A stretch of 64,000 bases of DNA from Chloroflexota bacterium (GTDB taxonomy: Bacteria > Chloroflexota > Anaerolineae > Anaerolineales > Anaerolineaceae): positions 1,001 to 65,000 of the forward strand of contig JAEYTI010000365.1 in assembly GCA_023434145.1 (NCBI GenBank), given 5' to 3'. A program made the translations under genes and the position numbers. Numbering within the stretch: the first letter of the stretch is position 1; each line of letters opens with the position of its first letter. The notes under the pieces are model-generated. The model was not told the DNA's origin, made no database searches, and was given only the letters and a program-made list of their open reading frames with translations. Below, in pieces: positions 37,359-64,000 of the stretch.

Positions 37359-37359
37359 T

Positions 37360-37536
37360 ATGTCGGCGGAGAGCATTGCGATAAAAGCAGTGACCGAGAC
37401 GGTCAAAGCCACTGAGAATGTGGTGAAGAAGATCTGGACCTTGCTGGATGCAGCCAGCGAGAAGGAACAGCCATCAAAATTTCTCAGCCAGCAGGCCGTT
37501 GAAGCCATTCAGGGCAGAACGAATCCCAAGGCATAG
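37360..37536 (+). CDS. Small helical protein (58 aa)
   Basis: Start moved to MSAESIAIK (AAGGGAGG RBS; the ATG follows the ATPase stop by 1 nt). Confidence 0.5.
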   Translation: MSAESIAIKAVTETVKATENVVKKIWTLLDAASEKEQPSKFLSQQAVEAIQGRTNPKA

Positions 37537-37597
37537 CGAAAGCCTGGCATTTCAAGCAATGCGAAGACCACCATAGAAAGGGGAAGGACAGGCAGAC

Positions 37598-47750: not shown

Positions 47751-47922
47751 CGATAAATTCCATGCTCCGATCGCGTTCAACTAATGATGGCTGTCGGTCA
47801 TCCAGCGCAGCAAGGCGGATAGAATCATGCCGCTGGCGACGCCGGTGGCGAGACCGATGAAGAACCACTGGGTGGCGACTGCCTGGCACACAGCCGGCGT
47901 CAGGTAAGAAACATTCATTGGG

Positions 47923-48966: not shown

Positions 48967-49365
48967 CTACCAGCCTTCCTGGCGGAATGTCACGTCCGAG
49001 CTAACAGTAAATGGGTCGCTCCAGCCGATAAAACCGCCCAGATAGTTCGGGATGGTGCCCGAGACGCGCACCTTTAGGATCGAGCCGGCCACCCCACCGG
49101 GAGCCAGGATCTGCACGTTCGGGCTCTGGACCAATTTGGCCGAAGCAATCGCTTCTCGTGCGCCATTCAAGGCATAGCAGGCTGAACAGCTTTGCGCGAC
49201 CGACCCCATCCTTGCCCCATGCCGGGCGGCAGCCTGCACCGCCTGCTGGCCAAAGATGACCATGCCGAGGTTGATCGTCGCCAGCATGATCAGCACCGCA
49301 ATCGGGGTCGTAATCGCTGCTTCAATCGTCTCCAGCCCGGCGCGGGCTTTGATGTATCTTTTCAT
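48967..49365 (-). CDS. tadE: TadE-like pseudopilin
   Basis: Start moved to MKRYIK (GGAGG 5 nt upstream). ..GLETIEAAITTPIAVLIMLATINLGMVIFGQQAVQAAARHGAR.. matches the TadE N-terminal pattern. Confidence 0.7.
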   Translation of the reverse strand: MKRYIKARAGLETIEAAITTPIAVLIMLATINLGMVIFGQQAVQAAARHGARMGSVAQSCSACYALNGAREAIASAKLVQSPNVQILAPGGVAGSILKVRVSGTIPNYLGGFIGWSDPFTVSSDVTFRQEGW

Positions 49366-49389
49366 AAGCGCCTCCAATAAAGATTGGTT

Positions 49390-49448: not shown

Positions 49449-49595
49449 TTAGATTTTCCCGGCCACATCCATGACAATCGTGTTGATGTTCTCGCCCAGC
49501 AGCTTATACGCGCCGTAGACCACCACCACGATGACTGCCATCAGCAGCGCCACTTCACTGGCTTCGATGGCTTGGGTATCGAGTAGGTAACGCAT
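49449..49595 (-). CDS. flp: Flp-family (type IVb-like) pilin, 48 aa, absent from the ORF track
   Basis: Hand translation gives MRYLLDTQAIEASEVALLMAVIVVVVYGAYKLLGENINTIVMDVAGKI. AAGGAGG lies 8 nt upstream. The gene sits between the prepilin peptidase gene and tadE. Confidence 0.75.
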   Translation of the reverse strand: MRYLLDTQAIEASEVALLMAVIVVVVYGAYKLLGENINTIVMDVAGKI

Positions 49596-49638
49596 GGTTT
49601 TCACCTCCTTTCCTGTAGAATAGGTCGTTCTTGTGTTG

Positions 49639-50160
49639 CTATCCGCTGCGCAGGAACTGCGCGGTCAGGTACCAGACCGTCCCAGCGGCAATCGCCAAGG
49701 TATAGGGCACGGTCTTCTCCTTCCGTAGCAGCCCGATCAAACCTTGCATCCCGCCGGCCAGAAACACGGCCACGAGCAGCAGGGGATCGCCGAGAAACAG
49801 CAGTAACGCCGTCAGCATCTTGGTGTCCGCCCCGCCCATCACGCCCATTTCCCACAAAACCCAGGCCGCAAAGAGGGCCATGGATAGGTTTCCCTGGGCA
49901 GCGCTGCCAAAGAGAATGCAGGCCATCCAGGCCGCACCGGCCAGCAGGATGCGCGCTGTGTGCGGCAGATCAGAGATGGCAATCAGTGCCAGCACCATCC
50001 CAACCACCAGCCAGTCCCCGGCAATCGTCCGCCAGGTCGCGGCCAGGAGCAGCGCGCTTAGGGTCAAGGTGTTGGGCACCTGGCGGGTCTTGAGGTCGCG
50101 CCAGACGCAGGCGGCTAGCCACAGCGCGAGGGGAACAACTGCCACTGCCGGCATCACCAC
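49639..50160 (-). CDS. tadV: Prepilin peptidase, A24 family (TadV/CpaA type, no methyltransferase domain)
   Basis: 173 aa, polytopic. The two Asp motifs are ..VWRDLKTRQVPN.. and ..MGGADTKML... Confidence 0.8.
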   Translation of the reverse strand: MVMPAVAVVPLALWLAACVWRDLKTRQVPNTLTLSALLLAATWRTIAGDWLVVGMVLALIAISDLPHTARILLAGAAWMACILFGSAAQGNLSMALFAAWVLWEMGVMGGADTKMLTALLLFLGDPLLLVAVFLAGGMQGLIGLLRKEKTVPYTLAIAAGTVWYLTAQFLRSG

Positions 50161-50726
50161 ACTCCGGGCAGCAGGCGGAAACGCACCTGCGCGGCATAAA
50201 GCGGATACCCGCTAATCATCTGCTCCTCGCGCAGGATGCGCAGCACCTGGATCAGCGCCAGGCATCCCGTGAGGATAAGCGCAAGCACCTGGTCTGGCGC
50301 TCCGGCGACCAGCGCCCCCCGCAGGAGCAGCTCGCCCAGATACATGGGGTGGCGCACCAGCCGGTAGGGGCCGCTCGTAACCAGTCCCCGGTCTGCCGGA
50401 GCGATGCCAAAACGCCCGCCGAGGGTCAGCAGCGACCAGAGAATCAAGAGATAACCGGCGAGCGCCGAGAGCGTGAGGAGAAGGCCTGGCGCTTCAGGGA
50501 GCGGCGAGGCAGTCGGCAGCACCGCGGCCATCAGTCCGAAAATGAGCCCCTTGCGATCGTAGCGCACGGTCGGGTAGCGGCGTAGGTACAGGATGGACAG
50601 AAGCCCATTGTGCAGCGCCACTAGATAGGCCAGCACGGTCGGGTGCTGCCAGGCGGCCAGGCCCGAGAGGCCGGCGGCGACCCCAAAGAATAGAAAACCG
50701 AGACGATTTCGCCAATTCCTGTTCAT
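50154..50726 (-). CDS. ICMT/PEMT-family membrane methyltransferase
   Basis: Start moved to MNRNWRN (190 aa); the longer track ORF overlaps tadC. Signature GPYRLVRHPMYLGELLL. It overlaps tadC (1 nt) and the peptidase gene (7 nt). Confidence 0.7.
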   Translation of the reverse strand: MNRNWRNRLGFLFFGVAAGLSGLAAWQHPTVLAYLVALHNGLLSILYLRRYPTVRYDRKGLIFGLMAAVLPTASPLPEAPGLLLTLSALAGYLLILWSLLTLGGRFGIAPADRGLVTSGPYRLVRHPMYLGELLLRGALVAGAPDQVLALILTGCLALIQVLRILREEQMISGYPLYAAQVRFRLLPGVW

Positions 50727-51586
50727 CAAAACATACCCGCCACAACCGGATAGCCCACCACGACCAGCAGGATGACCAGGTAGGGCAAGAAGTAGAAGAA
50801 GACCATCGGCAGCACCAGTTCCGAGCCAACCTTTTCCGCGCGCTGGTCGGCCTGGCCGATGTAATCGGCAGCGATCGCGCTGGCCAGTTGTGCCATCAGC
50901 TCCTGCTGGTTGGCTCCGCGGCGGATGAACTCGAGCTGCACCGCCATCGAGACCAGTTCTGGCAGGAGCGAACGGCGTGCTTCTTCCTGCATCACCGGAA
51001 CAAGCGTCCTGCCCTGGCTCATCTGGATGACCTGGATCATCCAGCGCCCGACCAGCGAAGTCTCTTTGGCCGAGCGCACCAACGCCTCTTCGAGCTTGAC
51101 GCCGGCAGCCATCTGGGCGGAAACCAGCTGGACGAACTCCGGCAGCTGGGATTGGAACGACCGCTGGGTCTTGCGCGCGGCAGCGCTTACATTCATGGCC
51201 GGGACTTGCCAGCCGAAAAAGGCGCAAAAAGCGCCCAGGAGCGGTGTGTCAAACACGATCAGGCCACCGACCCCGGCTGCGACCGCCGCGACCAGACGCA
51301 GGGCGATCAGCTGCGTGCCGGTCCAGCCACCCCACTTGTTACCCATCTGCGCCCAATACAGGTCCGCCTGCACCTTGCGCAAGAAACCGGCCGGGGTCCA
51401 TTTCGCAACCGGCTTTTCCAGCGGCTGGAGCGATCGCCGCAGCCCAGACAGCTCCGCATCCGCCGGCCGGTCCAACCGTTCCAGCACAGAGGTTGCCCGG
51501 TGTGGCGAAAGGGAAGGCACGAACTCGACCGTCAACACAATCACGAGCGCCCCAACCAGGATCCCGAGAATGGTAATGATCGTCAT
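50726..51586 (-). CDS. tadC: TadC-like (T2SS-F family) pilus platform protein
   Basis: 286 aa. N- and C-terminal TM helices flank a cytoplasmic helical domain. Position is after tadB. Confidence 0.7.
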   Translation of the reverse strand: MTIITILGILVGALVIVLTVEFVPSLSPHRATSVLERLDRPADAELSGLRRSLQPLEKPVAKWTPAGFLRKVQADLYWAQMGNKWGGWTGTQLIALRLVAAVAAGVGGLIVFDTPLLGAFCAFFGWQVPAMNVSAAARKTQRSFQSQLPEFVQLVSAQMAAGVKLEEALVRSAKETSLVGRWMIQVIQMSQGRTLVPVMQEEARRSLLPELVSMAVQLEFIRRGANQQELMAQLASAIAADYIGQADQRAEKVGSELVLPMVFFYFLPYLVILLVVVGYPVVAGMF

Positions 51587-52467
51587 ACGGCCTCCATGAT
51601 CATCGAGCGCATCACGCTGTAGCCCAGGGCCATGCTACCCATGCCCACCGCGATAGCGATCTGCACCGGGAAGGCGGAGAGCGAGCCCTGGATGGTGGGA
51701 TCCTGCCCGAGGTAGGCCAAAATCAGGGCCAGGACGCCTGGAATCACTTTGGCGGAAACCATTGCATCCCCGGCTTTGGCCTGTGAGCGGTTACGCGCCA
51801 CCAGGATTTGCTGCGTTTTTTGCGCAATGGAGGAAAGCACCCGGGCGTACGCCCCGCCACCGGCTTGCAGATAGCCCTCTAGCAGGTAAGCCAGGTTGGC
51901 CAGCGAGGTGGAAGGTGAGCGCGCAGCAAGGGAAACAAGCGCTTCCTCACGGTTTTTGTTGCGCATCTCAGCGGCGGTGAGGAGCAGCTCCGGGGTCAAA
52001 GGGTTGGCGCCTTCCACTGCGAGCGAATTCCCCACCTCTTCCAGCACATCCGGGACCGCGCCGCCGGCCAAGAGGCCTGCCGTGATGCGCCCGATGGCCA
52101 GTGGCAGCAGCTTGTCGATGGCCTGCCCGCGGCTTTTGACCTTATCGTCCAGCCAGGCGGAAGGCACATAGAACACCAGCGCCCCGGCCGCGATGGCCGG
52201 CAACCCGGGCAGGAGGGCCCAGGTGATCACCGCGGTTACCGCAGCCCCAGCCACACACAGCAGGCTGAAGGTGATGGGTTGCAGGCGAATTCCGGCTGCC
52301 AGGAGTTTGTATTCCAGCGAGTTTGCCGGCAGCTGGCTCAAACTTTGCGCTGCCTCAGGCGTATACAGGTCACCAATCCGCCGTTTCTCGCGTTCGAAGG
52401 GCAAGCGGTCGGGGGCAAATAGGAGAAAGATTAGTAGCGCGGCGAGGAAGCCGATGATAAAAACCAT
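51583..52467 (-). CDS. tadB: TadB-like (T2SS-F family) pilus platform protein
   Basis: 294 aa with the same topology. 4-nt overlap with tadC. Confidence 0.7.
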   Translation of the reverse strand: MVFIIGFLAALLIFLLFAPDRLPFEREKRRIGDLYTPEAAQSLSQLPANSLEYKLLAAGIRLQPITFSLLCVAGAAVTAVITWALLPGLPAIAAGALVFYVPSAWLDDKVKSRGQAIDKLLPLAIGRITAGLLAGGAVPDVLEEVGNSLAVEGANPLTPELLLTAAEMRNKNREEALVSLAARSPSTSLANLAYLLEGYLQAGGGAYARVLSSIAQKTQQILVARNRSQAKAGDAMVSAKVIPGVLALILAYLGQDPTIQGSLSAFPVQIAIAVGMGSMALGYSVMRSMIMEAV

Positions 52468-52479
52468 AGAAGCTCCTTG

Positions 52480-53763
52480 TTAATGGGTCTGGTACGGCTG
52501 GACGGCTTCCCAGCGCGGTTCGGCTGTGTCTTCGCGGAAGCGGTACAGCGGGCGGAAAGTGACCTGATCGCCTTCAGCCTCACCCACCTGGTTGATGGCC
52601 ACAATCCGGCGGGTTTCCCGGCGGATGCCGATCTGCACCAGGAGATCGATTGAGGCGGCGATCATCTGGCAGGCTTCTTCGCGGCCGATGTGCTGGTCGG
52701 TGCCTAGGATCGTAGCCATGCGCTGCACCGCCTCTCGCGGGCTGTCGGCATGGAAGGTGCACGCGCCCGAGTGGCCGGTCATCATGGCCCGGAAGAGGGC
52801 CATGGCCGCCTGCCCGTCGCGCACCTCGCCGACGATCAGATAGTCGGGCGACATGCGCAGCGCATCATCCACACCGTTGGCCAGCGTGTACGGCTGGACT
52901 TCCGTCCCGCGTGCCTGCGGCCGCGCTTCCACGGTCTGCACGGTCGTCCGGTCGATCCAGATTTCCTCTGGGTCTTCGATCTTGACAATGCGCCAGGGGA
53001 GGGGCAGGAAGTTGCACAGCGCCGAGAGCAGGGTGGTCTTGCCCGTGCGCGTACCGCCGCAGATCAGGATGCGCGCCCCTGACTGAACCGCCGCTTGCAG
53101 GGTCTCCAGCATCGCCTGATCAAGCACGCCGCGTTCCAGAATCCACTCCGGGCGCACCGGCTTTTGCTCATACAAGCGAATATTGATGACCGGATTGCGC
53201 CCGGGTGGGGCGATCACCGGATGGAGCGCCTTGATCCGCCCGCCGCCGGGGTTGGCCGGGGTGGCGGGCAGGCGCGCGTTGACGGAGGGGTTGACCTCAT
53301 TCAGGTTCTTGTTCTGCGGTCCCAGCAAGCGGTCCAGCACGCGCCAGATCTCATCCGGCTCTGGGCGCAAGGGGATCGTTTCCCAGCGCACGCTGCCTTT
53401 TTTCATCACCTGCAGCAGACCCGAGGAATACAGCGCCAGCTCGGAGAGGTCCGTGCGCGCCGGAGGCAGGAGCAAATCGAGAAAGCCCAAGCCCGTCAGT
53501 CGCCGTACCAGTTCGTTTGCCAGCTCGTTTTCTTCCGCCTGGCTGGCCGGCAAACTGCGCCGGCGCAGGCCCGTTGAGACCAGGGCGGCGATGCGTTCGC
53601 GGATCTGCGCTCGTTGCGCCTCGGATGGTCCCTGCAGCACCGCCGCAGGGAACTCGCGGTTGATCTGGTCGATAACTTCGTTGATCACGCCTTCGCGTTC
53701 TTTGGAGTCGAGGGCGCGCTGTTCGCTGGCGCTGGTATCGTAAAAGCTAAGAATATTGGACAT
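52480..53763 (-). CDS. cpaF: CpaF/TadA secretion ATPase
   Basis: 427 aa. Walker A CGGTRTGKTTLL, Walker B-like IVKIEDPEE, GEVRD and TGHSG boxes. Confidence 0.9.
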   Translation of the reverse strand: MSNILSFYDTSASEQRALDSKEREGVINEVIDQINREFPAAVLQGPSEAQRAQIRERIAALVSTGLRRRSLPASQAEENELANELVRRLTGLGFLDLLLPPARTDLSELALYSSGLLQVMKKGSVRWETIPLRPEPDEIWRVLDRLLGPQNKNLNEVNPSVNARLPATPANPGGGRIKALHPVIAPPGRNPVINIRLYEQKPVRPEWILERGVLDQAMLETLQAAVQSGARILICGGTRTGKTTLLSALCNFLPLPWRIVKIEDPEEIWIDRTTVQTVEARPQARGTEVQPYTLANGVDDALRMSPDYLIVGEVRDGQAAMALFRAMMTGHSGACTFHADSPREAVQRMATILGTDQHIGREEACQMIAASIDLLVQIGIRRETRRIVAINQVGEAEGDQVTFRPLYRFREDTAEPRWEAVQPYQTH

Positions 53764-53772: not shown

Positions 53773-55050
53773 CTAACGAAACAGGCGAAAGACGCCTTTC
53801 TTTTCCCGGTTGCTCACCTCAGGCTCCATGCCCGGATAGAGGTGCTTGTAAATGCTGCGGATGCCTTGAGCGAAATCGTCCAAAGCGGCGGACGGCGGGT
53901 TGCCCTGGTCTTGCTTGAGGGGCAGCTCGTCTACGCGCGGGATTATGGCTGCCACTGGCGGGGTCCAGCCGTCAAACTCTTTGCCCAGCGCGTCGAGAAA
54001 GGCGCGCGGGGTCATCGGCGCATGGTCGTGCACCTGGTTCAGCACCAGGAAGATGGCTTCACGCGGGATGCGGTGTTCGGCGCTCATCTGTTCGAGGAGC
54101 AGCTGCAGGGTATGACGCGTGCCGGCGACGTCTGCAAGAGTTGGCCGGGTCACCACAACCGCCGTATTGGCCGCGGTGATGCCCTCCAGCGTCCATGGCT
54201 GCTCACCGGGCGGCAGGTCCAGCAGCACTGCCGCGTAGTTACGCGTCCAGGTGGCCGAAAGCAGCCCGTGCAGACCGGATGGTTTGTCCCCGGTACTTTG
54301 CACTGCCAGTGCGTATTCGACGGAATTGGCCGGCGCGGTGATCACATCCAGCTTTTCATACTTCTGGATGGCGGCGTTGAAGCCATCCACCGGGCGGCGG
54401 ATAAACTCCATGGCGCTCGGGACATAGCGCAGATCCAGGTGCAGCGTGGCAGCCGGCGGCAGGTCGCAGCTGAGGAGCAGCGTCTGCAGGTTATTGCGCA
54501 CGGCCAGCTCATACCCCAGGGCTTCCGCAATCGTGGAGCGGCCGGTCCCGCCTTTCGCGGACAGGAAGGCGATCACCCGCGTGCCGGTTGCGACGGACCG
54601 CGCCCGGGATGGCTCGCTATAGGCCTGGCGTAGCGGGGTTGCGGCAACCCGCCGGGCGCGCTCGTTGTTGACCGCCAGCCACCCGGCCTCGACCACTTCT
54701 TGCCAGCGCACCTGCGGCAGCGTGTAAACATGCCGCACGGTGGAAACCTTACTGAGCAGGCCATAGGCGTGGTTGTACTCCGGGGGTAAGATGGCCAGCG
54801 CTACCCCGTGCCACTTTTGCAGCGCGGACAAGAGGTCCACCAGTGCTTCGCCGGATGGAGCAATCGCGGCATTCACCACCAGCAGGTCCGGCTGCAGCAT
54901 TTCCAGGTTTTTGGTCAGATCCTCCCAACTGTACACATTCGTGCTCAAGCGGAAGCGGCCGTCCCCGAAAAAAGGGCCCAGCATGACATCGTGTAGGAAT
55001 GCTGAATTTTGGGCTGCCAGCATCACAGATACTTTGAGTTCCTCGGCCAT
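53773..55050 (-). CDS. tadZ: TadZ/CpaE-like protein (receiver-like N-domain plus ParA/MinD-type ATPase with an atypical P-loop)
   Basis: 425 aa. The P-loop reads FLSAKGGTGRSTIAEALG, with Arg where the canonical GK[ST] Lys would sit. Confidence 0.75.
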   Translation of the reverse strand: MAEELKVSVMLAAQNSAFLHDVMLGPFFGDGRFRLSTNVYSWEDLTKNLEMLQPDLLVVNAAIAPSGEALVDLLSALQKWHGVALAILPPEYNHAYGLLSKVSTVRHVYTLPQVRWQEVVEAGWLAVNNERARRVAATPLRQAYSEPSRARSVATGTRVIAFLSAKGGTGRSTIAEALGYELAVRNNLQTLLLSCDLPPAATLHLDLRYVPSAMEFIRRPVDGFNAAIQKYEKLDVITAPANSVEYALAVQSTGDKPSGLHGLLSATWTRNYAAVLLDLPPGEQPWTLEGITAANTAVVVTRPTLADVAGTRHTLQLLLEQMSAEHRIPREAIFLVLNQVHDHAPMTPRAFLDALGKEFDGWTPPVAAIIPRVDELPLKQDQGNPPSAALDDFAQGIRSIYKHLYPGMEPEVSNREKKGVFRLFR

Positions 55051-55059: not shown

Positions 55060-55983
55060 CTAAGGCTGCGGTGTAGCAGCGGGTTGCGCAGCAGCGCCGT
55101 CTTCCTGCAGCGACTGGTAGAAAGCGCCCAGGTTGAGGGTATGGACATCCGCCGGTAGCGTCAGGCCTGCTGCCGGTTCCATTGCCAGGGTCAGTGCGCC
55201 GTATTTGTCCAGCGCCGCGATCAAGGTGGCTGCGTTGAGGGATACTCCGGGCAGCACCTCGACGGTCTGGGTGGGTACGTCCAGGACAATGACGCTGCCT
55301 GACTGGCTGGCCGAGGTCGTCCGGGCGGAAGAAAACATTTGCTCCTCGCTCGCGCCGGCCGGCACTTCTTGGTAGCGAAAGCCCTGCGGGACCATCAGTA
55401 CCTTGATCCCGGTCAAGGCCAGGCGCGCCAGCGGCGCTTGCGGCGGGCGAACGGTGGGGGTTGGGCTGGGTTCGGGAGTAGGCGCGGTTGGATCCATGGG
55501 GCCTGCAGGTTCTGGGATTTCGATCGAGACCGGCTCGAGCATGTTGACGTCACGCAGAATATCCGGCGAGAGCATGCCGATTACCGTCACGGTCTGCCCG
55601 GGGCGCAAGAGCCCCGCCACGCCGCTCGAAAGATCCACTTTCACTGCCAGGGCCACGTGCCCTTCAGCGAGTTCGGCCGGAATGCCGGCCTGGGCCGTGT
55701 CGCCCAGGATGGAAGCGGTGACGATATCGCCTGGCGCGCGGCCGACCGCGACCATCTTGCCGGCCACCTGTTCCGCCTGGGCGAAGGCGTCTTTCGGCCG
55801 GGCCTGGGCTGGCACGGTTTTTACTTCGACCAGGTCAGCGGTGAGCACGGTACCAGGGGCAATGACCACCTTTGCCACCACGACCGGCACCGGGCGGATG
55901 ATGCCGTTGAGTAAAACGATGGTCAGCAGGCCAATCAGCACGGCCAGGACGATAGGGACAACGGGCGAGCGTTTCTTGAACAT
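55060..55983 (-). CDS. cpaB: CpaB/RcpC-like Flp pilus assembly protein (SAF domain)
   Basis: 307 aa. N-terminal TM, then ..VVVAKVVIAPGTVLTADLVEVKTVPAQ... Pro-rich middle region. Confidence 0.75.
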   Translation of the reverse strand: MFKKRSPVVPIVLAVLIGLLTIVLLNGIIRPVPVVVAKVVIAPGTVLTADLVEVKTVPAQARPKDAFAQAEQVAGKMVAVGRAPGDIVTASILGDTAQAGIPAELAEGHVALAVKVDLSSGVAGLLRPGQTVTVIGMLSPDILRDVNMLEPVSIEIPEPAGPMDPTAPTPEPSPTPTVRPPQAPLARLALTGIKVLMVPQGFRYQEVPAGASEEQMFSSARTTSASQSGSVIVLDVPTQTVEVLPGVSLNAATLIAALDKYGALTLAMEPAAGLTLPADVHTLNLGAFYQSLQEDGAAAQPAATPQP

Positions 55984-55990: not shown

Positions 55991-58900
55991 TTAACCTCCA
56001 GTGGAAGATAGAGACAGCCGCGCCAATATTTCGCCGTCAGACGGCTCGCGGCTGCGGATGATGAGGGGATGAACCAGCATGGGCTCCATGTCAGCCACCT
56101 CGGTCGAGTAGCCGAGCTTCACCACAGCGTACTCGCGCGGGATGCGGGCCAGGTAGCGCTTGTATTCGGTGTTGACGATGCCCTTTTCGCTACGCCCGAT
56201 GTGCGCCAGCACCAGGTCGCGGTCCTTGGGGTTTTTGGTCTGGTAGATGAACAGGTTGCCGCACGAGGAGAGGAGGCCGTCGGGGGTTTCCGAGACCGTC
56301 TGCACCAGGATGTGTGAGAGCACGCGGTACTTGCGCCCGTCGCGGAACTGGTTGAGGATCGTCTCCGACACCTGGCTTTTGCCAGCCGTCGAACCACCCT
56401 GGTCTGAGGCTGCGCCACCCGAAACGCCCGAGATGATCTTATTCGCCTCTTCAAAGAAGATCTGCATGGGTGGAAAGCTGCGACCATCCAATGATTCGCG
56501 CCGGCGCTTGACCGCATCGAGATACAGGATCGAGTCGAGCAGCGAGAACAGGGCCGCTTTGGCGTACTCGTCCATCTCCGCGCCGCCCTCGATGACCGTG
56601 ATGCCCCAACGCTCTTCATCCTCCGGCCCGTTGAGCCCCAGATCCTCAATGGCGATGGTGTCCTCACCCGGCCCATACATGGCCTGCATCTCGCCCTCTG
56701 CCAGCGGGTCGATGCGCAGCAGCACCCCTTGCAGCGACGTGCGGCTGGAGAGGTCTTTTTCATGCTTCTTGAGCAGCTGGCGCAGTTGCTTTACCCAAGC
56801 CACGAGCGAACAGGAGCGGCTGCGGAAGATGTAGAGGGCCTGCTTTTCTAGCTCGGTGAGCAGCGAGAGTGAGCTGCCCAGAACACTCCGCTGGTTCAGT
56901 CCCTGTTCCATGCGCGCCCGGTTGATGGCCTCTTCCTCTTTTACACTGCGCACGAAGCGGTAGGCGCTGCGCAGTGTGCAGAGATCACGGATATAGCGCT
57001 GCCGGCGGGTTTCGCGTTCGTCATCCGCATCATCCTTCTTGCCACGCGGGAAATCGGGGATCTCACTCTCCTCGAACAGCTCTTCGCCTTCCGGGATGAC
57101 CAGCACACCGGCATTTTTGTAAATCGTGGTCAGCGCCTCGCGCATAAAACCCAGCTGCCGCGCGCCCATCCTCCCGGCGTTGGCAAACATCTCGACCACC
57201 AGGTTGCGGTAGGCCACCGGCCGGATGCGCCGGGGCACCTGCAGCGGGTTCCAGCGGATGGGCCGCACCGCGCCGGGGTAGAGCTGGCGGATATCCACCC
57301 GGCCCGCCAGCCCTGGCCAGTTCAAGGCTTTGCGCCAGCCCTGGCCAAAGTCCAGCACGATCGTGCGGTAGTGCCAGCGCAACGTGGTTTCGTAGGCCAG
57401 CCGCTCGGCTGAAACGGTCTTGCCAAAGCCGGTGTCACCGACAAAGGCCGTGTGGAAGTGCCGCTCGGGCGTTAGTTTCAACTGCGCGCCGGTCAGCTCG
57501 CCGGTCTCCACGCTCCACAGGTGGCCGAGCACCACATCCCCCGGCATTTCCGGTACGTAGGCAAACTCGGGCGTGGATTCCTGTACCGTGAGGGCCGTGC
57601 CCTGCTCGAACATGCCTGGCGCGGTATAGGCCGCGGTTTGCAGCATGGTCAGCAGGGTCGAGTCGGCATAGCCGGAAAGCACCTCCGGGACGCTTTCCAC
57701 GCGGGTGGAGGGCGTAAAGGTGCGCGCGTGCAGATGAATATAGGCCTCCTCTGCCTGGGTCAGGTCGCGTGTCTGCACGCCGGTGATGACATCTTCGGTG
57801 CCGTGAAAGGCCTCCGGGATCAGGCCCATCAGCGCCCGCTTACCGTCCGCGCTGCGCGAGAGGGCGTAAACGTCCGTGTAATACGCGCCTTCTTTCGACG
57901 CAGTCAGGAGCAGCTGTTGCTGCATGCGCAGGAGGTGCGTGACCAGCAGGACCGGATCGTTCTGCCACTGGTAGGAATTAGAGATCGAAAAGGACGGCGC
58001 AACACCGACCGATAACCCGGCCGAAACCCCATGCCCCAGCATCTGGCTGGCCGTCTGGTTCTGCATGCGGCTGTCAGCCTGGGACGTGGTAGCTGACTGC
58101 GAGTTGGTGACGGATTGGCTGGTGGTGTCAGCGGTCGAGTTGGTAATCGACCCAGACGTACCCCAGGATTCGCTTCGGGAATGCGTGACCGATGCGCTGC
58201 TGGTGGCTGCAGTTGAGTTGGTCTGGGCGTGCGAGGTGGTATCCGCCTGCCCGTTGGTTTCGGCGTGGCTGGTAGTATCGGAGGACATCGAGGAACTGGC
58301 ATAGCCGTCCGCCGAACCCCAGCCGACACTGGCACCAATCGACCCGTCTGCAATCACCACGCCGCCCTTAAGCCCGCCGTTCAAGCCCCAATTAAAGCTG
58401 TCCACGTGGGATGAAGAGGAAGAGGATCCTTCTGTATGGGAAGAGCCATCCGTGACGGAGTGGCTTTCCGTGTGCGAGCTGCCCTCGGTCGTGGCTTGCC
58501 CAACTGTGTTCGCGGTTCCCGTGCTGACCGCTTCGCCTTCGCTGACGGTATGGGACCACCCATATGAGGAAGCGTGACCGGTGGTATGGGCAGAGCCTGT
58601 GCTGTTGGCCAGCCCGGTGGAATGCGCAGAGCCATCGGTATGCGAGCTGCCTTCACCCGTGCTGTAGCCCAGCCCTGTGTTTTGCGCGAGCGCCCCGGAG
58701 AGGATGGCCGGCAGGCTGATGCCAAAGCTGGCTGCGCGTGAGCCAGTCTGCCAGGCCGACCAGGCGGCGGTATGCTCGGCCAGGCCGGCCAGCATCTCGG
58801 TAATGGCCTCGATCCCCACCGGGCTGGTCAATACCAGGTACAGGAATTCTTCCTTGAGATCCGCCATACCCCGAAAGAGGATTTCATTCTGCTGCATGCT

Positions 58901-59548
58901 CAAAGGGGCACCCGCATGCCCTTCACCGGTCAGTGGATTGCGCAGGGCCGCGGAAGGATTGGACCGCGCCGCTTCCCGAGGGTCGGGATGGCCAACCGTC
59001 ACCAGGGTATGCTTCATTTCGCTAAAGGCGCTGAAGATCCACTGGCACAGGCGGGTATCGAGCGGGGAGACGCGGATCTGCCGGTATGCGCCGGCCAGCG
59101 CTGCCCGCAGCGCGGCCAGATGCTGGCGCGACTCCTCGACCGCCTGGTCGAGATTGGGCGAAAAGGTGGCGACGCCGTAGCACTGCAGGATGCCCACCGG
59201 CGGGTTGAAGATCCCGGCCACCAGGTAGATCAGATCCACTTGCGAGCCGTATAGCCCACGCAGTACTGTGCGCATCTTCTGCAGTAGTCCCGCATCCGCC
59301 CGCGCTTCGAGGGGCAGAAAGCGTAGCTGCAGCAGGCGCACCACCCGGTAGCCAGAGAAGCCGTATTCGCCCTCGCGCACCTCCAGCCGGTACCAGAAAT
59401 AGTCCAGCGCATCGCGATCCGGGCAAAAGGCAATCCCGCTGTCCAGGACGGATAAATCCTGGGGAATGCTGGTTCCCCCGCTCGGCCCCAGCCAGCGTGG
59501 GGCCAGCTCGTGGACAGTATGGATGGCGCGTTCAATCAAATCGGTCAT
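55991..59548 (-). CDS. FtsK/HerA-superfamily P-loop ATPase (1185 aa) with a large N-terminal region interrupted by a ~235-aa Ser/Thr/Gly/His-rich insert
   Basis: Walker A FVGDTGFGKTVSAERL, Walker B MQIFFEEANKI, distal NLFIYQTKNPKDRDLVL block. The layout matches the 920-aa ATPase at 34596-37358. Confidence 0.75.
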   Translation of the reverse strand: MTDLIERAIHTVHELAPRWLGPSGGTSIPQDLSVLDSGIAFCPDRDALDYFWYRLEVREGEYGFSGYRVVRLLQLRFLPLEARADAGLLQKMRTVLRGLYGSQVDLIYLVAGIFNPPVGILQCYGVATFSPNLDQAVEESRQHLAALRAALAGAYRQIRVSPLDTRLCQWIFSAFSEMKHTLVTVGHPDPREAARSNPSAALRNPLTGEGHAGAPLSMQQNEILFRGMADLKEEFLYLVLTSPVGIEAITEMLAGLAEHTAAWSAWQTGSRAASFGISLPAILSGALAQNTGLGYSTGEGSSHTDGSAHSTGLANSTGSAHTTGHASSYGWSHTVSEGEAVSTGTANTVGQATTEGSSHTESHSVTDGSSHTEGSSSSSSHVDSFNWGLNGGLKGGVVIADGSIGASVGWGSADGYASSSMSSDTTSHAETNGQADTTSHAQTNSTAATSSASVTHSRSESWGTSGSITNSTADTTSQSVTNSQSATTSQADSRMQNQTASQMLGHGVSAGLSVGVAPSFSISNSYQWQNDPVLLVTHLLRMQQQLLLTASKEGAYYTDVYALSRSADGKRALMGLIPEAFHGTEDVITGVQTRDLTQAEEAYIHLHARTFTPSTRVESVPEVLSGYADSTLLTMLQTAAYTAPGMFEQGTALTVQESTPEFAYVPEMPGDVVLGHLWSVETGELTGAQLKLTPERHFHTAFVGDTGFGKTVSAERLAYETTLRWHYRTIVLDFGQGWRKALNWPGLAGRVDIRQLYPGAVRPIRWNPLQVPRRIRPVAYRNLVVEMFANAGRMGARQLGFMREALTTIYKNAGVLVIPEGEELFEESEIPDFPRGKKDDADDERETRRQRYIRDLCTLRSAYRFVRSVKEEEAINRARMEQGLNQRSVLGSSLSLLTELEKQALYIFRSRSCSLVAWVKQLRQLLKKHEKDLSSRTSLQGVLLRIDPLAEGEMQAMYGPGEDTIAIEDLGLNGPEDEERWGITVIEGGAEMDEYAKAALFSLLDSILYLDAVKRRRESLDGRSFPPMQIFFEEANKIISGVSGGAASDQGGSTAGKSQVSETILNQFRDGRKYRVLSHILVQTVSETPDGLLSSCGNLFIYQTKNPKDRDLVLAHIGRSEKGIVNTEYKRYLARIPREYAVVKLGYSTEVADMEPMLVHPLIIRSREPSDGEILARLSLSSTGG

Positions 59549-59695
59549 ACGGTTTTTACCCTCCGGTCAAGTGCTTGCCGCTTGGTCCATGCCGGCAAAG
59601 TGGTTTCTGGAAAAAGCGTCCGGTAAAACAGGAGCCACCTTTCCGGCATGGAACGAGAGACAAGGGCTGGGCGCGCCGTGACGCGCCCAATTACT

Positions 59696-59977
59696 CTAAA
59701 GCTGGGGATCAGGGGAAATCCCCAAGGCATCCTGCCCAGTATCCTGCCCGTCACGGCGAGCAGTCCGGTAGTTGCGCTTATTGCGCCCGTAGTGGTAGTG
59801 CATGCGGGCTTCGATCAGGTGGTTGGCCCGAACGACCCGAGGAATGCGGTTATGCTTAAGCGTGTAGCGCAGGGCATACGCCGCGAAAGCGACCGCCGAG
59901 ACGACGATCAGGCAGGCCAGGGCAATCAGGCCGATGACAACCGGTAAAGCGAAGGTTCCAATCTGGTGCATATTCAT
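59696..59977 (-). CDS. Small single-TM protein with a basic tail (93 aa)
   Basis: TM LPVVIGLIALACLIVVSAVAFAAYAL followed by an Arg/Lys/His-rich segment. Confidence 0.5.
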   Translation of the reverse strand: MNMHQIGTFALPVVIGLIALACLIVVSAVAFAAYALRYTLKHNRIPRVVRANHLIEARMHYHYGRNKRNYRTARRDGQDTGQDALGISPDPQL

Positions 59978-60109
59978 GTCGTGGCTCCTGGTAGGTTCAG
60001 ACGCTTGGGTTTCAGATACGATCGAAGTACGATGGTTTCGTAGACTGCACTTCAGGGCAGGTCCGCGTATGGATCAGGGGATCCGCAGAGGATCACCGGA
60101 CGCATCCGC

Positions 60110-60805
60110 CTACCTGCGGCTCTGGGTGTGGCGAAGAAAAGCACGGACGTCGCCGCGTGGGCTAAGCGCGCTGCGCGGGTTGACCAGGAGTTGCTGGAGC
60201 AGGAGCGAGCCAAAGCCCAGCGGAATGACCAGCCAGAGCGCCCACAAGACCACCGTGGTTACGCTGGAACGGGTGTTGGCGATCACCGCTGCGGCCGAGT
60301 CGGTCGAGCCGATCAAGCCGGCCCACTGTTCGGGCGTCAGCTGAGCGGTGTAGCTGAGGTAGATGCGGCTGGCGATCACCGCCAGGCTGTAGAGGATCAG
60401 CCCAGTTTTGACGAACCACAGCGTGTTTTCGCGTTGGTGGTCGGGGGCGAGGAAGATCCCCGCCAGCCCGACCAGCCACATGCCTGCGCCAATCCAGGGC
60501 ACTGGCTCGCGGATCAGAAATTGCGCCAGTAGCCACAACCCAAGGGCGATCCCGGTCAGGAGCGCGGACATCGGCAGGATAGGGAGGGAAGCACTGGAGA
60601 GGTTGTCCATCGCGCCGCGCCGGGGAACAAAGCCGGCTTTCGCCTGGGCGGGTAAGTCAAACCAGTGGAAGCAGCCATACGCGCTCCCCAGGCTGACCAG
60701 TGAGGGAAAATTGGCAGCGAGCTGGTAGACAATCACCAGCAACCCGTTTGCAAAGTACACTGGCAGGTCCGCCAGCAGCATTCCCAGCCCATCCAGGGTC
60801 GACAT
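60110..60805 (-). CDS. Polytopic membrane protein (231 aa)
   Basis: About six hydrophobic helices. Its start overlaps the stop of the upstream gene by 1 nt. Confidence 0.6.
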   Translation of the reverse strand: MSTLDGLGMLLADLPVYFANGLLVIVYQLAANFPSLVSLGSAYGCFHWFDLPAQAKAGFVPRRGAMDNLSSASLPILPMSALLTGIALGLWLLAQFLIREPVPWIGAGMWLVGLAGIFLAPDHQRENTLWFVKTGLILYSLAVIASRIYLSYTAQLTPEQWAGLIGSTDSAAAVIANTRSSVTTVVLWALWLVIPLGFGSLLLQQLLVNPRSALSPRGDVRAFLRHTQSRR

Positions 60806-62142
60806 TACTCACCGCCTCCAGGCAAAGAGCGCACCAGGGTCAGGAAAACCTGCAATCGGCCGCTGCCGTTCAAGGTCCGCGCGCGGGTATAAGGTGTACC
60901 GGCGGTTTGCACGGTCAGGGTCAGGTCGAAGGTGCCTGGGTCGGCGAACGGAACTTTCAGCAGGCTTGCAGTCGCCGTGCAGGTATTGCCGCTGCAGCCG
61001 GTCTCATACTTGCCACGACCTGGCACGAGATTGATGTTGGGGTTCTTCAGGCCGGCCTCGTACCATTTCCCGGCCAGGTCGGTGGTGATCCAGACCCGGC
61101 TGGCCGCGTCAAGCGACGCCTGGGCGGTCAGGTTCGTGATACGCTCCGGGTACTGGTCGATGTGCTGGCGGCACTCGTAGCCGACCACTTCTTCATCCTG
61201 CACGCCCCGGCTGCCGCTGGCAGTGGTGCAGTTGGTCGTTTCGCCGGCATTGGGCGCGCGGCAGACATCTTCCTTTTTCTCCACGCGCTCATACCAGGTC
61301 CGGACGACCGGCGGGATGCTGACCGAAACATGGACATCCGCGCCCCGTTTTTCGGGATCCTGACCGATGACCAGCGGTTTTGCCGGTTCCGTTTTGATAA
61401 TCGAGAGCGATGGGCTGCCCTGGGAGATGGTCGCTGCCGGGCAGTTGATCGGTGTTGGCGGTGTTTTCGTTGGGTCATTTGGCTTCTTTGGTTGGACGCC
61501 TTTGCACCCACCCGGCACCTGGGTGCAGTTGATCGCCCCATTTTTATAGAGTAGCAGCCCCAGGCGTGGATCCATATCTGCGAAGGAGAGCGTCGCCAGG
61601 TCGGCGAGGAAGTCGAATCCGGAGAACCAGGTCCAGACGTTCTCATTGCCGTTGATCACCGACTGCCAGAAGTCGCTGGGGTTGACATATTCTGGGTGCT
61701 GGCTAGAAACCCTGTCCCAGTCGATGTTGTTGCCAAGGAGCGCACCCAATGCTTCCGCGGCGGCCATGCCACCGATGCCCACCTGGGAGGTCGCGTCGGC
61801 AAATCCGCTTTCGACCGGATTAGCGGCCATCATCACCAGGGTGAGGGGGGAGGGAAGAACGACGATATTGCCATCCGGGGTTTGGTAGCGATGGTAGTTG
61901 GCATCCAGATCGATTTCTGCGCCCAGGGGCAGCTGGATATCCATCCACTCAGCCGGTTCCGTAGACTCGCCGAGGTCGGTGAGGTTATCGAAGCGGATAT
62001 TGCCGTTTTCATCGACCACCTCACCCCAACCAGATTCTTCCTCCTGCGCTTGGGCCTTGAGGATCGGCTGCGTCAGGTTGAAGACTAGCAGAAGGGCAAC
62101 CGCCATGAAAAAGAAAGAACGACGAATAGAGGTATGGATCAT
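60805..62142 (-). CDS. Secreted hypothetical protein (445 aa)
   Basis: Signal peptide FFFMAVALLLVFNLTQPILKAQA. Several Cys pairs and a Pro/Thr/Lys linker. Confidence 0.6.
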   Translation of the reverse strand: MIHTSIRRSFFFMAVALLLVFNLTQPILKAQAQEEESGWGEVVDENGNIRFDNLTDLGESTEPAEWMDIQLPLGAEIDLDANYHRYQTPDGNIVVLPSPLTLVMMAANPVESGFADATSQVGIGGMAAAEALGALLGNNIDWDRVSSQHPEYVNPSDFWQSVINGNENVWTWFSGFDFLADLATLSFADMDPRLGLLLYKNGAINCTQVPGGCKGVQPKKPNDPTKTPPTPINCPAATISQGSPSLSIIKTEPAKPLVIGQDPEKRGADVHVSVSIPPVVRTWYERVEKKEDVCRAPNAGETTNCTTASGSRGVQDEEVVGYECRQHIDQYPERITNLTAQASLDAASRVWITTDLAGKWYEAGLKNPNINLVPGRGKYETGCSGNTCTATASLLKVPFADPGTFDLTLTVQTAGTPYTRARTLNGSGRLQVFLTLVRSLPGGGE

Positions 62143-62145
62143 GCC

Positions 62146-62703
62146 TTACTCCTTGGTGAAGCGTTCCGCTTCCTCGGGTGTCAGGAAGCGCTCGAACTTC
62201 CAAACGCCTTGGTCGACAACAACCAGAACAAACGCCGTATCACTGGTCTTCTCGCTGCCGGGCATGGGTTGATTGAGCTCTACCTGCACTTTCCAGACTT
62301 GTGTGGCTGCGTTTTTGCGAGCCGAGGCGGTTCCCTCGCTGACTTTCTGGATGGCTCTGGCTTGCGCTGTGATCTCAAATGGCTGGTCGTCAAATGATTG
62401 CCACAGTTTTTCCGCGCCCAGCTTGTATAAGCTGCAGCCGGCCTGGGTTGCGGTTTCGCACAGCTTCGCCAGCCAGGCGTCTTTCCCAGACTGGCTGGCG
62501 AAGCTGAAAAATGCCTGAGTGCCATCCACAGCAGCCTCCGCACCCAGGCGGTCATCGGGAGGGAGCCGGTCGAATTCGCTGCCAGCTTGGTTTGGATCGA
62601 TGAGCGGCAGCCAGGAGCTGCGGGTCGAATAGGCGGCCCACGCTCCGGCCAGTAACAGGAGGAGAACCAAAACCTTGGGGAGAAAGTTGCTGAGTCGATG
62701 CAT
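62146..62703 (-). CDS. Signal-anchored or secreted hypothetical protein (185 aa); first gene of the supercluster
   Basis: N-terminus FLPKVLVLLLLLAGAWAAYS. GAGG lies 8 nt upstream. Confidence 0.6.
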   Translation of the reverse strand: MHRLSNFLPKVLVLLLLLAGAWAAYSTRSSWLPLIDPNQAGSEFDRLPPDDRLGAEAAVDGTQAFFSFASQSGKDAWLAKLCETATQAGCSLYKLGAEKLWQSFDDQPFEITAQARAIQKVSEGTASARKNAATQVWKVQVELNQPMPGSEKTSDTAFVLVVVDQGVWKFERFLTPEEAERFTKE

Positions 62704-62865: not shown

Positions 62866-62894
62866 ATCATAACGGGGCGGAGAATCCATGTCAA
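62866..62894 (-). promoter_or_regulatory. Sigma70-type promoter upstream of the leader
   Basis: On the - strand: TTGACA (62889-62894), a 17-nt spacer, then TATGAT (62866-62871). Confidence 0.5.
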
Positions 62895-63292: not shown

Positions 63293-64000
63293 TCACTTTC
63301 TATGCTTATGGCGCTTTCGTATCTTTTGGGGGGCCGCTTTATTTTTTCCTAGTTTAGAAAATAAATGCTGAAAGGCTGCTGTAATACCATTTGTATGGGC
63401 ATCAGTTAGCAACTCCAGTCGGATACGGAATTTCTCCTCATTACCCTGATCGCCTGCATGGTTGGCTTTTGTTACCAACTGTTGAAGAAGTTTGATTGTA
63501 GAAATTTGTAGTAATACGCTTTTCTGACGTTCCATAACTTGGCGAGTTTCGGTCCAGTTATTCGTGTTCAAAAAATCTGTCAACGCTTCAAACTCATTGG
63601 GCGACATAGCAACTATCCTGTTTGGTTCATCATTTATATTGGAAAATTTTTTTAAATAAGGAGACATTTGCATAAAAAGTTGCTGATCATTAGTATTGTT
63701 CTCTTCTTGGCCACCTCTCATTTTATTTAGTACTTTAAGATAATCTTCCACGGTAAGGCCTCTTTCATCAGTTTCTAGATTATGGGTTTCAAATAATGTA
63801 ATTGCTTTATTAAGAAGAAAAACGGCTTCCGTAACATTTTTAGTGCTAAAAAATTTCATAGTCGCCAGTTCAAAGAGGGTATGGATTTCAGATGCGATCA
63901 TACCTATCTGTTCATAAATTTGCAGCACCCGCTCCATAGTATCAATTGCAACTTCCATTTGACTTTCTCTATAATAGATTTCACTTAAGTTATGAAGAGT
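63293..64000 (-). CDS. Helical-repeat (TPR-like) protein; 5' part lies beyond the right edge
   Basis: The frame stays open from the track start (63958) to nt 64000 (..TLHNLSEIYYRESQMEVAID..). AT-rich DNA and a Lys/Arg-rich C-terminus. Confidence 0.5.
   Translation of the reverse strand, partial: TLHNLSEIYYRESQMEVAIDTMERVLQIYEQIGMIASEIHTLFELATMKFFSTKNVTEAVFLLNKAITLFETHNLETDERGLTVEDYLKVLNKMRGGQEENNTNDQQLFMQMSPYLKKFSNINDEPNRIVAMSPNEFEALTDFLNTNNWTETRQVMERQKSVLLQISTIKLLQQLVTKANHAGDQGNEEKFRIRLELLTDAHTNGITAAFQHLFSKLGKNKAAPQKIRKRHKHRK

Follow-up and report, generated by a model that had tools for sequence, protein, structure and literature searches.

A HerA/VirB4-class ATPase with membrane and exported partners at the front of a Chloroflexota Tad pilus operon: a candidate DNA translocation apparatus

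Introduction

Why would an operon for a Tad pilus begin with a giant P-loop ATPase and four membrane or exported proteins? The question is posed by a stretch of 64,000 nucleotides (nt) from a Chloroflexota bacterium of the family Anaerolineaceae (contig JAEYTI010000365.1), which is referred to here as the window. Five minus-strand open reading frames (ORFs) within 62703-55991, of 185, 445, 231, 93 and 1185 amino acids (aa), lie in front of a set of Tad genes, and the last of them encodes the ATPase. These five genes are termed the front module below. An earlier reading of the window, made from the letters alone (the sequence-only reading), had taken module and Tad genes together as a candidate hybrid translocation apparatus with likeness to DNA-transfer systems. 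We suggest, at a probability of roughly 0.45, that the front module is a Ced/Ups-like or conjugation-like DNA translocation apparatus working with the Tad pili, a reading that draws on sequence comparison and on analogy. Anaerolineae dominate anaerobic digesters, activated sludge and sediments; to our knowledge, almost nothing is known of their cell biology and gene-exchange routes.

Results

Conservation of the front module with the Tad genes

Relatives of the ATPase were sought by scanning GTDB with one genome per species, which gave 190, and the best 80 loci were used for context. Neighbouring genes were found by clustering all ORFs of these 80 loci, and the synteny of relatives was read by tblastn with the window proteins. 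Downstream counts refer to the 60 loci with at least 2 kilobases (kb) downstream and upstream counts to the 52 loci with at least 5 kb upstream. The recurring order was 185 - 445 - 231 - (small transmembrane, TM, protein) - ATPase - CpaB - TadZ - CpaF - TadB - TadC - ICMT-like. In 53 of the 60 loci the ATPase gene was followed on its own strand, at no more than 1.5 kb, by cpaB, and cpaB-tadZ-cpaF was likewise found directly downstream in 53/60. The 231-aa gene was present upstream in all 52 loci, the 445-aa gene in 50 and the 185-aa gene in 47. Since the ATPase has 190 relatives and the three proteins of 185, 445 and 231 aa are kept so widely, the five ORFs, which lie on the strand and at the positions given by the sequence-only reading, are real genes and not chance ORFs. 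They are the fixed front end of the Tad operon in Anaerolineae and other Chloroflexota. Because the module is co-conserved and co-oriented with the Tad genes far beyond close relatives, a merely local association of the two, which would have spoken against the sequence-only reading, does not apply.

The gene junctions indicate translational coupling within the module and from the ATPase to cpaB. Between the 185-aa stop and the 445-aa start there are 3 nt, and AAGGAG precedes the latter. As the sequence-only reading had described, the 445-aa stop and the 231-aa start overlap (TAATG), and 7 nt separate the ATPase stop from the cpaB start (TAA, 7 nt, ATG); a Shine-Dalgarno sequence, GGAGG, falls within the last ATPase codons. 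A promoter-like site (Table 1) is located at the edge of the conserved block of high guanine-cytosine (GC) content. In the promoter and terminator scans, site counts were not above those of shuffles.

Nearly all of the 80 loci were from Anaerolineae or Chloroflexota metagenome-assembled genomes (MAGs). The exception, L062 (VEPG01000013.1), is a member on a 5.4-kb contig binned as Desulfuromonas sp.; as every other locus is from Chloroflexota, this placement is probably a binning error. Cultured carriers are Longilinea arvoryzae, Levilinea saccharolytica, Flexilinea flocculi and Leptolinea tardivitalis. Several genomes possess two to four copies of the ATPase, such as CAYOHX01 with L002, L003, L021 and L032. 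A profile search of 1.84 billion cluster representatives recovered 786 proteins at E <= 1e-3 and 297 at E <= 1e-30, up to 1761 aa in length.

Profiling of the linkage between the ATPase family and the Tad genes found it kept across deep divergence, and members with only 268-356 bits on the family profile still precede RcpC-TadZ-CpaF-TadB-TadC. The most distant contexts read (L082-L087, whose ATPases score only 268-475 bits) were the following. L082 has 56 aa - 184 aa - ATPase - RcpC - TadZ - T2SSE - T2SSF - T2SSF - TadE. L083 has DnaE - SSB - SSB - 292 - 509 - 63 - 179 - ATPase - RcpC - TadZ - T2SSE - T2SSF x2 - 61 aa - Peptidase_A24, and L086/L087 have DnaE - 155 - SSB - 273 - 480 - 57 - 175 - ATPase - RcpC - TadZ - T2SSE - T2SSF x2 - 72 aa - A24. 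In L084/L085 the order is SSB - Flp - Flp - TadE - Tad - 188 - Big_13/PKD 1671 aa - 410 - 71 - 186 - ATPase - ParM-like. The TadB/TadC equivalents in the distant loci carry T2SSF, and genes of 56-71 aa occupy the region equivalent to that of the 93-aa gene. The 179-aa protein of L083 matches the 231-aa family profile weakly (E = 3e-4). Kinship of the 185- and 445-aa proteins to the proteins at the same positions in L083 was also considered and rejected, as no similarity was found; the 410-509-aa proteins of the distant loci are homologues of another family (c12, described below) and not relatives of the 445-aa protein.

Tad genes were missing downstream of the ATPase in seven loci, and a clear stand-alone module was seen in four (L043, L045, L058 and L074). 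Because these four carry the module with no adjacent Tad genes, the front module is a separable unit, which limits the sequence-only reading of a hybrid with the Tad machinery. The same four loci, with the short loci L040, L049, L051 and L072, form a clade in which additional genes, about 2-4 kb in all, separate the 231-aa gene from that of the ATPase. L045 lacks this insert, and some clade members have no adjacent Tad genes. The neighbours in this clade are defence-type genes, including DUF234-like ATPases, Fic and an SbcCD-like pair.

The ATPase

From its profile and fold matches, the ATPase is predicted to be a HerA/VirB4-class motor with a novel N-terminal region of 690 aa. It scored 1220.9 bits on the NCBIfam model NF033849 (ser_rich_anae_1, "serine-rich protein"; curated cut-off 650 bits) and is a full-length member of that family. 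Homologues in Anaerolineae MAGs are named only "serine-rich protein" or "hypothetical protein". The sequence-only reading had spoken of an uncharacterised family; this is correct in that no function has been assigned, but the family was already catalogued as NF033849.

The family profile matched HerA structures in PDB (8yho, 1e-6; 8wiv, 1e-5; 8ziq, 7e-5), in the C-terminal core only. The AlphaFold2 model had a mean predicted local distance difference test score (pLDDT) of 64, with two well-predicted parts. Foldseek comparison of the whole chain, which is dominated by the ATPase core, gave a list of PDB matches led by HerA hexamers (8yhx, 9e-8; 4d2i) and including the VirB4 C-terminal domain (4ag5, TM-score 0.57 on the target) and full-length R388 TrwK/VirB4, with a probability of 1.00 for both HerA and VirB4. 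The best matches among viral models (BFVD) were VirB4-like proteins, one of them annotated as "conjugal transfer protein". These profile and fold matches support the assignment to HerA/FtsK/VirB4-type motors made in the sequence-only reading.

The P-loop core spans aa ~670-1125. GDTGFGKT and FFEEANK, both singled out in the sequence-only reading, are its Walker A and Walker B-type motifs. In an alignment of 74 members these two, the RDGRKY motif and the D-R-D block were invariant or nearly so, and the region from FFEEANK to D-R-D aligned with HerA structures. In its motifs, arginine-finger region and RecA-like fold the protein conforms to the HerA/FtsK P-loop superfamily. No Pfam family was matched at the threshold of E <= 0.01, the DUF87/HerA central domain included, and a precomputed PF12846 match exists for one homologue (P0107). 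PADLOC HerA matches were marginal (E ~3e-5) and covered only the last ~60-110 aa of the core. There is one P-loop domain, no FHA match in Pfam and no hydrophobic (TM) segment by hydropathy. Between the repeat segment and the core, aa ~530-610 form a conserved alpha/beta part. The family profile found no sequence match in PDB for the N-terminal domain.

The repeat segment of the ATPase is almost devoid of Lys and Arg. Autocorrelation of Gly and of Ser/Thr reached 0.34 and 0.31 at lag 6, with echoes at 12 and 18, and a Gly/hydrophobic motif is conserved in mid-segment. Its length was 194-277 aa among the 118 members where it could be delimited, and exactly 250 aa in most of those sampled. Judged by its sequence, the segment is not a random linker and looks like a structured repeat inside a cytoplasmic ATPase. 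AlphaFold2 draws long beta-hairpins here, at very low confidence (~30-37).

A second ATPase in the window, of 920 aa (34596-37358), had been placed by the sequence-only reading in one family with the 1185-aa protein. It is a HerA-type ATPase, with matches to DUF87, to part of CedD (72.8 bits against an NCBIfam cut-off of 600), to HerA models and to PADLOC mad8 (9e-15). The common family was not borne out. BLASTP between the two gave E = 0.12, around Walker A only; the 1185-aa family profile aligned with the 920-aa protein by hhalign at E = 0.017 and a probability of 2.7%, from Walker B to the C-terminus only; and the 920-aa protein scored 52.7 bits on NF033849, against the cut-off of 650. The two ATPases have HerA/FtsK superfamily motifs in common, and neither family nor N-terminal layout. 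On the plus strand at 32324-38950 the 920-aa gene is accompanied by zinc-ribbon proteins (333 and 379 aa) and a 450-aa Peptidase_C39-like protein; this set may be a HerA system of the defence type, with no relation to the Tad module. A BREX-like set was found at 251-7926, consisting of an Eco57I/PglX-type methylase (1080 aa), a 781-aa protein with a weak PglZ match and a BrxL Lon-like protease (693 aa). It is followed by two DUF4268 proteins, in AT-rich DNA (GC 0.38-0.40).

Partner proteins

The topologies of the five proteins were predicted by hydropathy, and for the four partners they agree with the membrane or secreted character proposed in the sequence-only reading. The 231-aa protein is the most deeply conserved partner of the ATPase after the Tad genes. 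Its family has the invariant motifs N-G, P-x-P-x-x-G-x-x-x-W and P-x-G, and its AlphaFold2 model is confident (pLDDT 82.5; predicted template modelling score 0.73), with helices of up to 40 residues. Nothing meaningful was found for it in the family libraries or in a PDB sequence profile search. A VirB6-like fold, put forward for checking in the sequence-only reading, was not recovered: against PDB, including R388 VirB6 (8rtd and related), Foldseek found nothing below E = 0.35 for this model. The exclusion is not a strong one, because Foldseek has little sensitivity for bundles of membrane helices.

The 185-aa family has the anchor followed by a helix-rich segment with two conserved Cys (C82 and C90) and then beta-strands, as seen in the alignment. 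Proteins of the 445-aa family have a cleavable signal, two domains separated by a Pro-rich linker, and six invariant Cys. Neither protein was matched in Pfam, NCBIfam, PADLOC, PHROGs or PDB sequences. In the 93-aa protein one very hydrophobic helix is followed by the basic tail. Its sequence is conserved in the three closest loci only, although its position is not lost, as a strongly hydrophobic small ORF (clusters c11 and c25) fills the gap in nearly all relatives. A sub-threshold HIG_1_N match was the only one for this protein in Pfam, NCBIfam, PADLOC and PHROGs.

Tad genes downstream of the module

By sequence matches, the genes downstream of the ATPase are a recognisable Tad set of the monoderm type, in which the Flp and TadB candidates are assigned by size, position and hydrophobicity (Table 1). 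No secretin was found in the set. The methyltransferase gene between tadC and the prepilin peptidase is unusual for a Tad locus and is conserved in at least 26 relatives. Proteins of the Big_13 type recur in relatives, including distant locus L084. Just outside the Tad block lie a secreted-type staphylococcal nuclease-lamin-tail fusion (41839-42870) and an HD_5 phosphohydrolase (43317-43901).

Table 1. Predicted features of the front module and the Tad genes, in window coordinates
Feature	Position	Strand	Basis or remark
Sigma-70-like promoter candidate	62866..62894	-	TTGACA-17-TATGAT; 11/12 consensus match only; ~165 nt upstream of first gene
185-aa protein, N-terminal anchor or signal and ~130-aa extracytoplasmic domain	62146..62703	-	Hydropathy, family alignment
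445-aa secreted protein, Sec-type signal ending AQA	60805..62142	-	Hydropathy, family alignment
231-aa polytopic membrane protein, ~5 long helices	60110..60805	-	Hydropathy, AlphaFold2 model
93-aa single-pass membrane protein, basic C-terminal tail	59696..59977	-	Hydropathy; position conserved, sequence not
HerA/VirB4-class P-loop ATPase, 1185 aa, cytoplasmic	55991..59548	-	NF033849 member; HerA/VirB4 profile and fold matches
ATPase N-terminal alpha/beta domain, aa ~30-268	58745..59461	-	pLDDT mostly 75-94; many invariant residues; no assigned family
ATPase Ser/Thr/Gly/His-rich hexapeptide-repeat segment, aa 281-526	57971..58708	-	Period-6 autocorrelation, conserved length
Walker A GDTGFGKT, aa 704-711	57416..57439	-	G704, D705, G707, G709 and K710 invariant in 74 sequences
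Walker B-type FFEEANK, aa 1031-1037	56438..56458	-	Followed by RDGRKY (aa 1069-1074) and Q-T-K-x-x-x-D-R-D block
CpaB/RcpC homologue	55060..55983	-	SAF and RcpC domains (Pfam)
TadZ/CpaE-like ParA/MinD-type ATPase	53773..55050	-	Pfam AAA_31/ParA and conserved order
CpaF/TadA secretion ATPase	52480..53763	-	T2SSE and conserved order
TadB-like platform protein	51583-52467	-	No Pfam match; size, position, polytopic hydrophobicity
TadC-like platform protein	50726-51586	-	Weak T2SSF match; polytopic; conserved order
ICMT/PEMT-like membrane methyltransferase	50154..50725	-	Pfam; true start probably downstream of 357-aa ORF start
Prepilin peptidase	49639..50160	-	Peptidase_A24
51-aa candidate Flp-type pilin	49449..49604	-	No Pfam match; size, hydrophobic core, position only
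Two TadE/TadG-like minor pilins	48967-49377 and 48531-48962	-	Pfam TadE and Tad
232-aa membrane protein	47923-48621	-	
1011-aa Ig-like (Big_13) surface protein	44745-47780	-	Signal peptide and C-terminal anchor; end of conserved block

DNA-handling genes near the relatives

Four gene clusters recur upstream of the 185-aa gene in relatives, and were counted in the 43 Anaerolineae loci with at least 4.5 kb upstream. They are c15, an SSB family protein (PF00436, 29.9 bits, above cut-off), c13 (180 aa) and c8 (158 aa), both membrane-anchored, and c12 (~424 aa). Cluster c8 was present in 29 of the 43 loci, c12 in 18 (always on the same strand), c13 in 14 and SSB in 10, the last count being limited by flank length. 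The c12 protein consists of a coiled coil and a PadR-like winged helix (PDB profile matches down to 3e-4), with a C-terminal domain that has an invariant P-D...E-V-E...K-W signature. This domain weakly matched VRR_NUC (5 members, best E = 0.001) and an AHJR-like restriction endonuclease (3 members), and Replic_Relax was matched by a single member (E = 0.004). A domain like the PD-(D/E)xK-type nucleases would fit, if weakly. The set SSB, c13 and c12 was noted upstream in L004, L005, L007, L009, L031, L052-L054, L057 and others.

SSB was also found in three independent distant contexts (L083, L084 and L086). Homologues of c12 are present in L084 and L086, and in L083 indirectly, through the 480-aa protein of L086. 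DnaE adjoins SSB in L083 and L086, a DnaA_N-domain protein directly precedes SSB in L031 (F. flocculi), and a RecD2-type helicase is located upstream in L016. These neighbours (SSB, the winged helix-turn-helix (wHTH) and nuclease-like protein, DnaE, RecD2 and DnaA_N) point to DNA as the polymer that the ATPase would translocate.

Discussion

Possible functions of the front module

If the front module is a DNA translocation apparatus working with Tad pili, its five products would build an envelope-spanning complex of three layers. In the cytoplasm the HerA/VirB4-class ATPase would presumably form a ring with a central pore. The 5-helix 231-aa protein and the single-pass 93-aa protein in the membrane are proposed to dock it, and outside the membrane the anchored 185-aa protein and the secreted, putatively disulfide-bonded 445-aa protein would extend the complex. 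DNA, probably single-stranded, would be moved across the envelope by import, export or both, between cells that the Tad pili of the same operon and the Big_13 surface protein would keep in contact; the beneficiary might be the host chromosome or a mobile element.

Rings of the HerA/FtsK/VirB4 fold translocate polymers. Pilus-coupled translocation of DNA is favoured here because of the motor class, the membrane partners, the Tad operon, the DNA-handling neighbours, the precedent of Ced/Ups and the occurrence of the module as a separable unit. The analogy with DNA transfer drawn by the sequence-only reading has gained the SSB, wHTH/nuclease-like and DnaE/RecD2/DnaA_N neighbours of relatives, and has lost the VirB6 fold looked for in the 231-aa protein, whose model matched none.

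Several observations weigh against DNA translocation, including that missing VirB6 match. The ATPase reached no HerA, VirB4, TrbE, AAA_10, CedB or CedD model in Pfam or NCBIfam, and the absence of CedB, CedD and VirB4 matches counts here. Among the window ORFs scanned there was no relaxase, coupling protein or ComEC, as the sequence-only reading had already remarked. Relatives of the 185- and 445-aa proteins could be detected within the Anaerolineae clade only. SSB, c13, c12 and c8 are all missing upstream of the window copy, and the nuclease-like matches of c12 are weak. HerA/FtsK-fold motors also move proteins, as in the type VII secretion system (T7SS) or, for VirB4, in pilus assembly. Transcript data, moreover, tie the Anaerolineae Tad cluster to adhesion and aggregation and not to DNA transfer (PMC4877987).

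The main rival, which we consider unlikely, is a protein translocator or pilus-assembly accessory that would export or assemble the Big_13 adhesin, the 445-aa protein or a second filament, in the manner of EssC/EccC or VirB4. The HerA/VirB4-fold ATPase, its strict operon linkage to a pilus machine and the two dedicated extracytoplasmic proteins would all suit such a role, as would a conserved large Ig-like surface protein, which in L084 directly precedes the module. The adhesion-linked expression of the Tad cluster (PMC4877987) and the lack of a local SSB or c12 in the window copy point the same way. However, Sec-type signal peptides of the ordinary kind are present on the 445-aa and Big_13 proteins, which therefore need no special exporter, and a protein substrate would leave the SSB, nuclease-like and polymerase neighbours unexplained. 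FHA, tandem P-loop domains and WXG-type substrates, the marks of T7SS, are also missing.

It is more doubtful that the module is the transfer apparatus of an integrated conjugative-type element, of which the window copy would be partly decayed or split. The edges of the conserved block invite this reading. Nucleotide homology with L003 starts at 62845 and ends near 44790, and the block has a GC content of ~0.62 between flanks of ~0.44. The sharp steps (~0.6 to ~0.4) at 62.8 kb and ~44.8 kb coincide with the limits of nucleotide homology to L001-L003. Beyond the upstream edge the source contig holds an unrelated 1262-aa CHAT-TPR gene; the 221-aa ORF at 63293-63958 is the 3' end of this gene. 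Several MAGs carry two to four copies, and a ParM-like ALP_N protein, AbiE toxin-antitoxin-like ORFs (by inspection) and SSB occur near relatives. The window itself has a high-GC minus-strand block at 12433-24847, with a DUF6094 methyltransferase-SNF2/ResIII helicase fusion (1122 aa), DnaN, RadC-JAB, an SSB-like ORF (~22120-22401) and a Rad52 plus SWIM protein. Its genes p203-Rad52-SSB-p201 (20.8-24.8 kb) directly follow the Tad genes in L059 and L065. A DDE_Tnp_1 transposase (24954-26108) is located at the edge of a 19-kb lower-GC stretch between the Rad52/RadC/DnaN and Tad blocks, and may mark an insertion that split one element.

Against an integrated element, the surroundings of the module yielded neither an integrase nor a coupling protein nor a relaxase of any known class, and the window has no tRNA gene. 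No flanking direct repeat was found: the candidate edges at 11.4-12.6 and 62.7-63.4 kb have no repeat of at least 11 nt in common, and other edge pairs gave a single 12-nt match, which is at chance level. A search of IMG/VR viral contigs gave no member of the ATPase family, and in L089 the Rad52 block is not beside Tad genes. Multiple tad loci per genome are, besides, common for purely adhesive pili.

An unrelated HerA function that merely travels with the Tad genes (anti-phage defence, DNA repair, or a pilus-regulating or anchoring ATPase with no translocation) is very improbable: in sequence the ATPase comes closest to the HerA proteins of anti-phage systems, defence genes abound in the window (BREX-like, the mad8/HerA-like 920-aa protein) and solitary modules are found among defence-type genes, but the PADLOC HerA matches are marginal, the module has membrane or exported partners and no Sir2, DUF4297 or NurA, and its linkage to the Tad genes is kept, with translational coupling, across deep divergence.

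Returning to pilus-coupled DNA translocation, a broader proposal can be made tentatively, as a possibility short of likely. Chloroflexota may hold an unrecognised DNA-exchange machine in which a Tad (archaeal-type) pilus and a HerA-clade translocase are encoded in one operon, as a bacterial counterpart of Ced/Ups with its own conduit, made of the 231-aa family and a single-pass protein, and its own SSB/wHTH-nuclease set; filamentous Anaerolineae would have two to four copies of it per genome. The length-conserved 250-aa hexapeptide-repeat beta-structure of the ATPase could form part of that conduit. Should DNA be moved, horizontal gene transfer in bacteria would have a new route, combining a type IV filament with a HerA-clade motor and dispensing with a canonical relaxase, coupling protein or ComEC, and the logic of Ced/Ups would extend from archaea to bacteria. 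The Tad cluster is among the most highly transcribed Anaerolineae loci (PMC4877987). Were the module a protein exporter instead, it would represent a new Tad-pilus accessory in monoderm-like envelopes. Through the proposal, a family now named only "serine-rich protein", with at least ~300 clusters at 50% identity, acquires a hypothesis of its function, one that can be tested in cultured F. flocculi, L. saccharolytica, L. arvoryzae and L. tardivitalis.

Comparison with known systems

The front module is not a member of any described system, and its ATPase family is known only under a non-functional NCBIfam name. With T7SS (EssC/EccC) it has in common a superfamily-related ATPase, partners that are single-pass, bitopic and polytopic (as are EssA, EssB and EsaA), and a monoderm envelope. 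Unlike EssC/EccC, the ATPase has only one P-loop domain and lacks TM helices and FHA domains, and its nearest relatives are HerA and VirB4, not FtsK. No WXG100-type genes were seen near the module.

HerA proteins, which act with NurA in repair and as Sir2- or DUF4297-HerA against phages, are the best sequence and fold matches of the core, which has the same Walker A, hhhhEEA Walker B, R-x-G-R-K-Y arginine-finger region and Q-T...D-R-D block. In contrast to them, the ATPase reached no HerA equivalog model, its N-terminal 690 aa are unrelated and its gene belongs to a pilus operon, with four membrane or exported partners that match no family in place of NurA, Sir2 or DUF4297.

Canonical Tad loci (Aggregatibacter, Caulobacter, Bifidobacterium and Micrococcus) have the same CpaB/RcpC, TadZ, CpaF/TadA, TadB, TadC, prepilin peptidase, Flp-like and TadE-like components; in Micrococcus luteus the Tad pili serve DNA uptake. 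The window locus differs from them in the HerA-class ATPase with dedicated membrane and secreted partners at the front, in the ICMT-like methyltransferase inside and in the lack of a secretin. The Tad clusters of Anaerolineae and other Chloroflexota have been described with only pilA, cpaB/E/F and tadB/C (PMC4877987; bioRxiv 10.1101/2025.08.19.671072). In agreement with the sequence-only reading, no paper was found in the literature on Tad loci that reports a HerA-class ATPase or this front module.

The likeness to type IV secretion systems (T4SS) lies in the ATPase fold, which resembles the VirB4 C-terminal domain and aligns along R388 TrwK and phage "conjugal transfer" proteins, and in the gene for a small membrane protein immediately before the ATPase, as VirB3 precedes VirB4. 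There are also polytopic and bitopic partners, and the topology and position of the 185- and 93-aa proteins would be compatible with VirB8- and VirB3-like roles, respectively. However, VirB4, TrbE or AAA_10 matches, a VirB6 fold in the 231-aa protein, a VirB2-type pilin, a relaxase and VirD4 are all lacking, and the filament is a Tad pilus.

In Sulfolobales, the HerA-clade ATPases CedB/CedD, the membrane proteins CedA/CedE with 5-6 TM helices and the Ups type IV pili jointly mediate DNA exchange (PMC11868833; PMC9905601). Ced/Ups imports or exports DNA between pilus-aggregated cells with small membrane proteins and with neither relaxase nor coupling protein (PMC11868833; PMC9905601), and Tad pili are themselves of archaeal type IV origin (bioRxiv 10.1101/2025.08.19.671072). 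The front module resembles this arrangement in its HerA-clade ATPase with an unassigned N-terminal domain, its 5-helix membrane partner and small membrane protein, its accompanying type IV filament, which Ced/Ups needs for cell contact, and its lack of a relaxase or coupling protein. It departs from it in that the 1185-aa ATPase matches no Ced model, CedD being partly matched only by the unrelated 920-aa protein, and in that the ATPase has no TM helices and carries the 250-aa hexapeptide-repeat insert. Here, unlike in Ced/Ups, the genes for pilus and translocase form one operon, two extra extracytoplasmic proteins are added, and the host is a bacterium.

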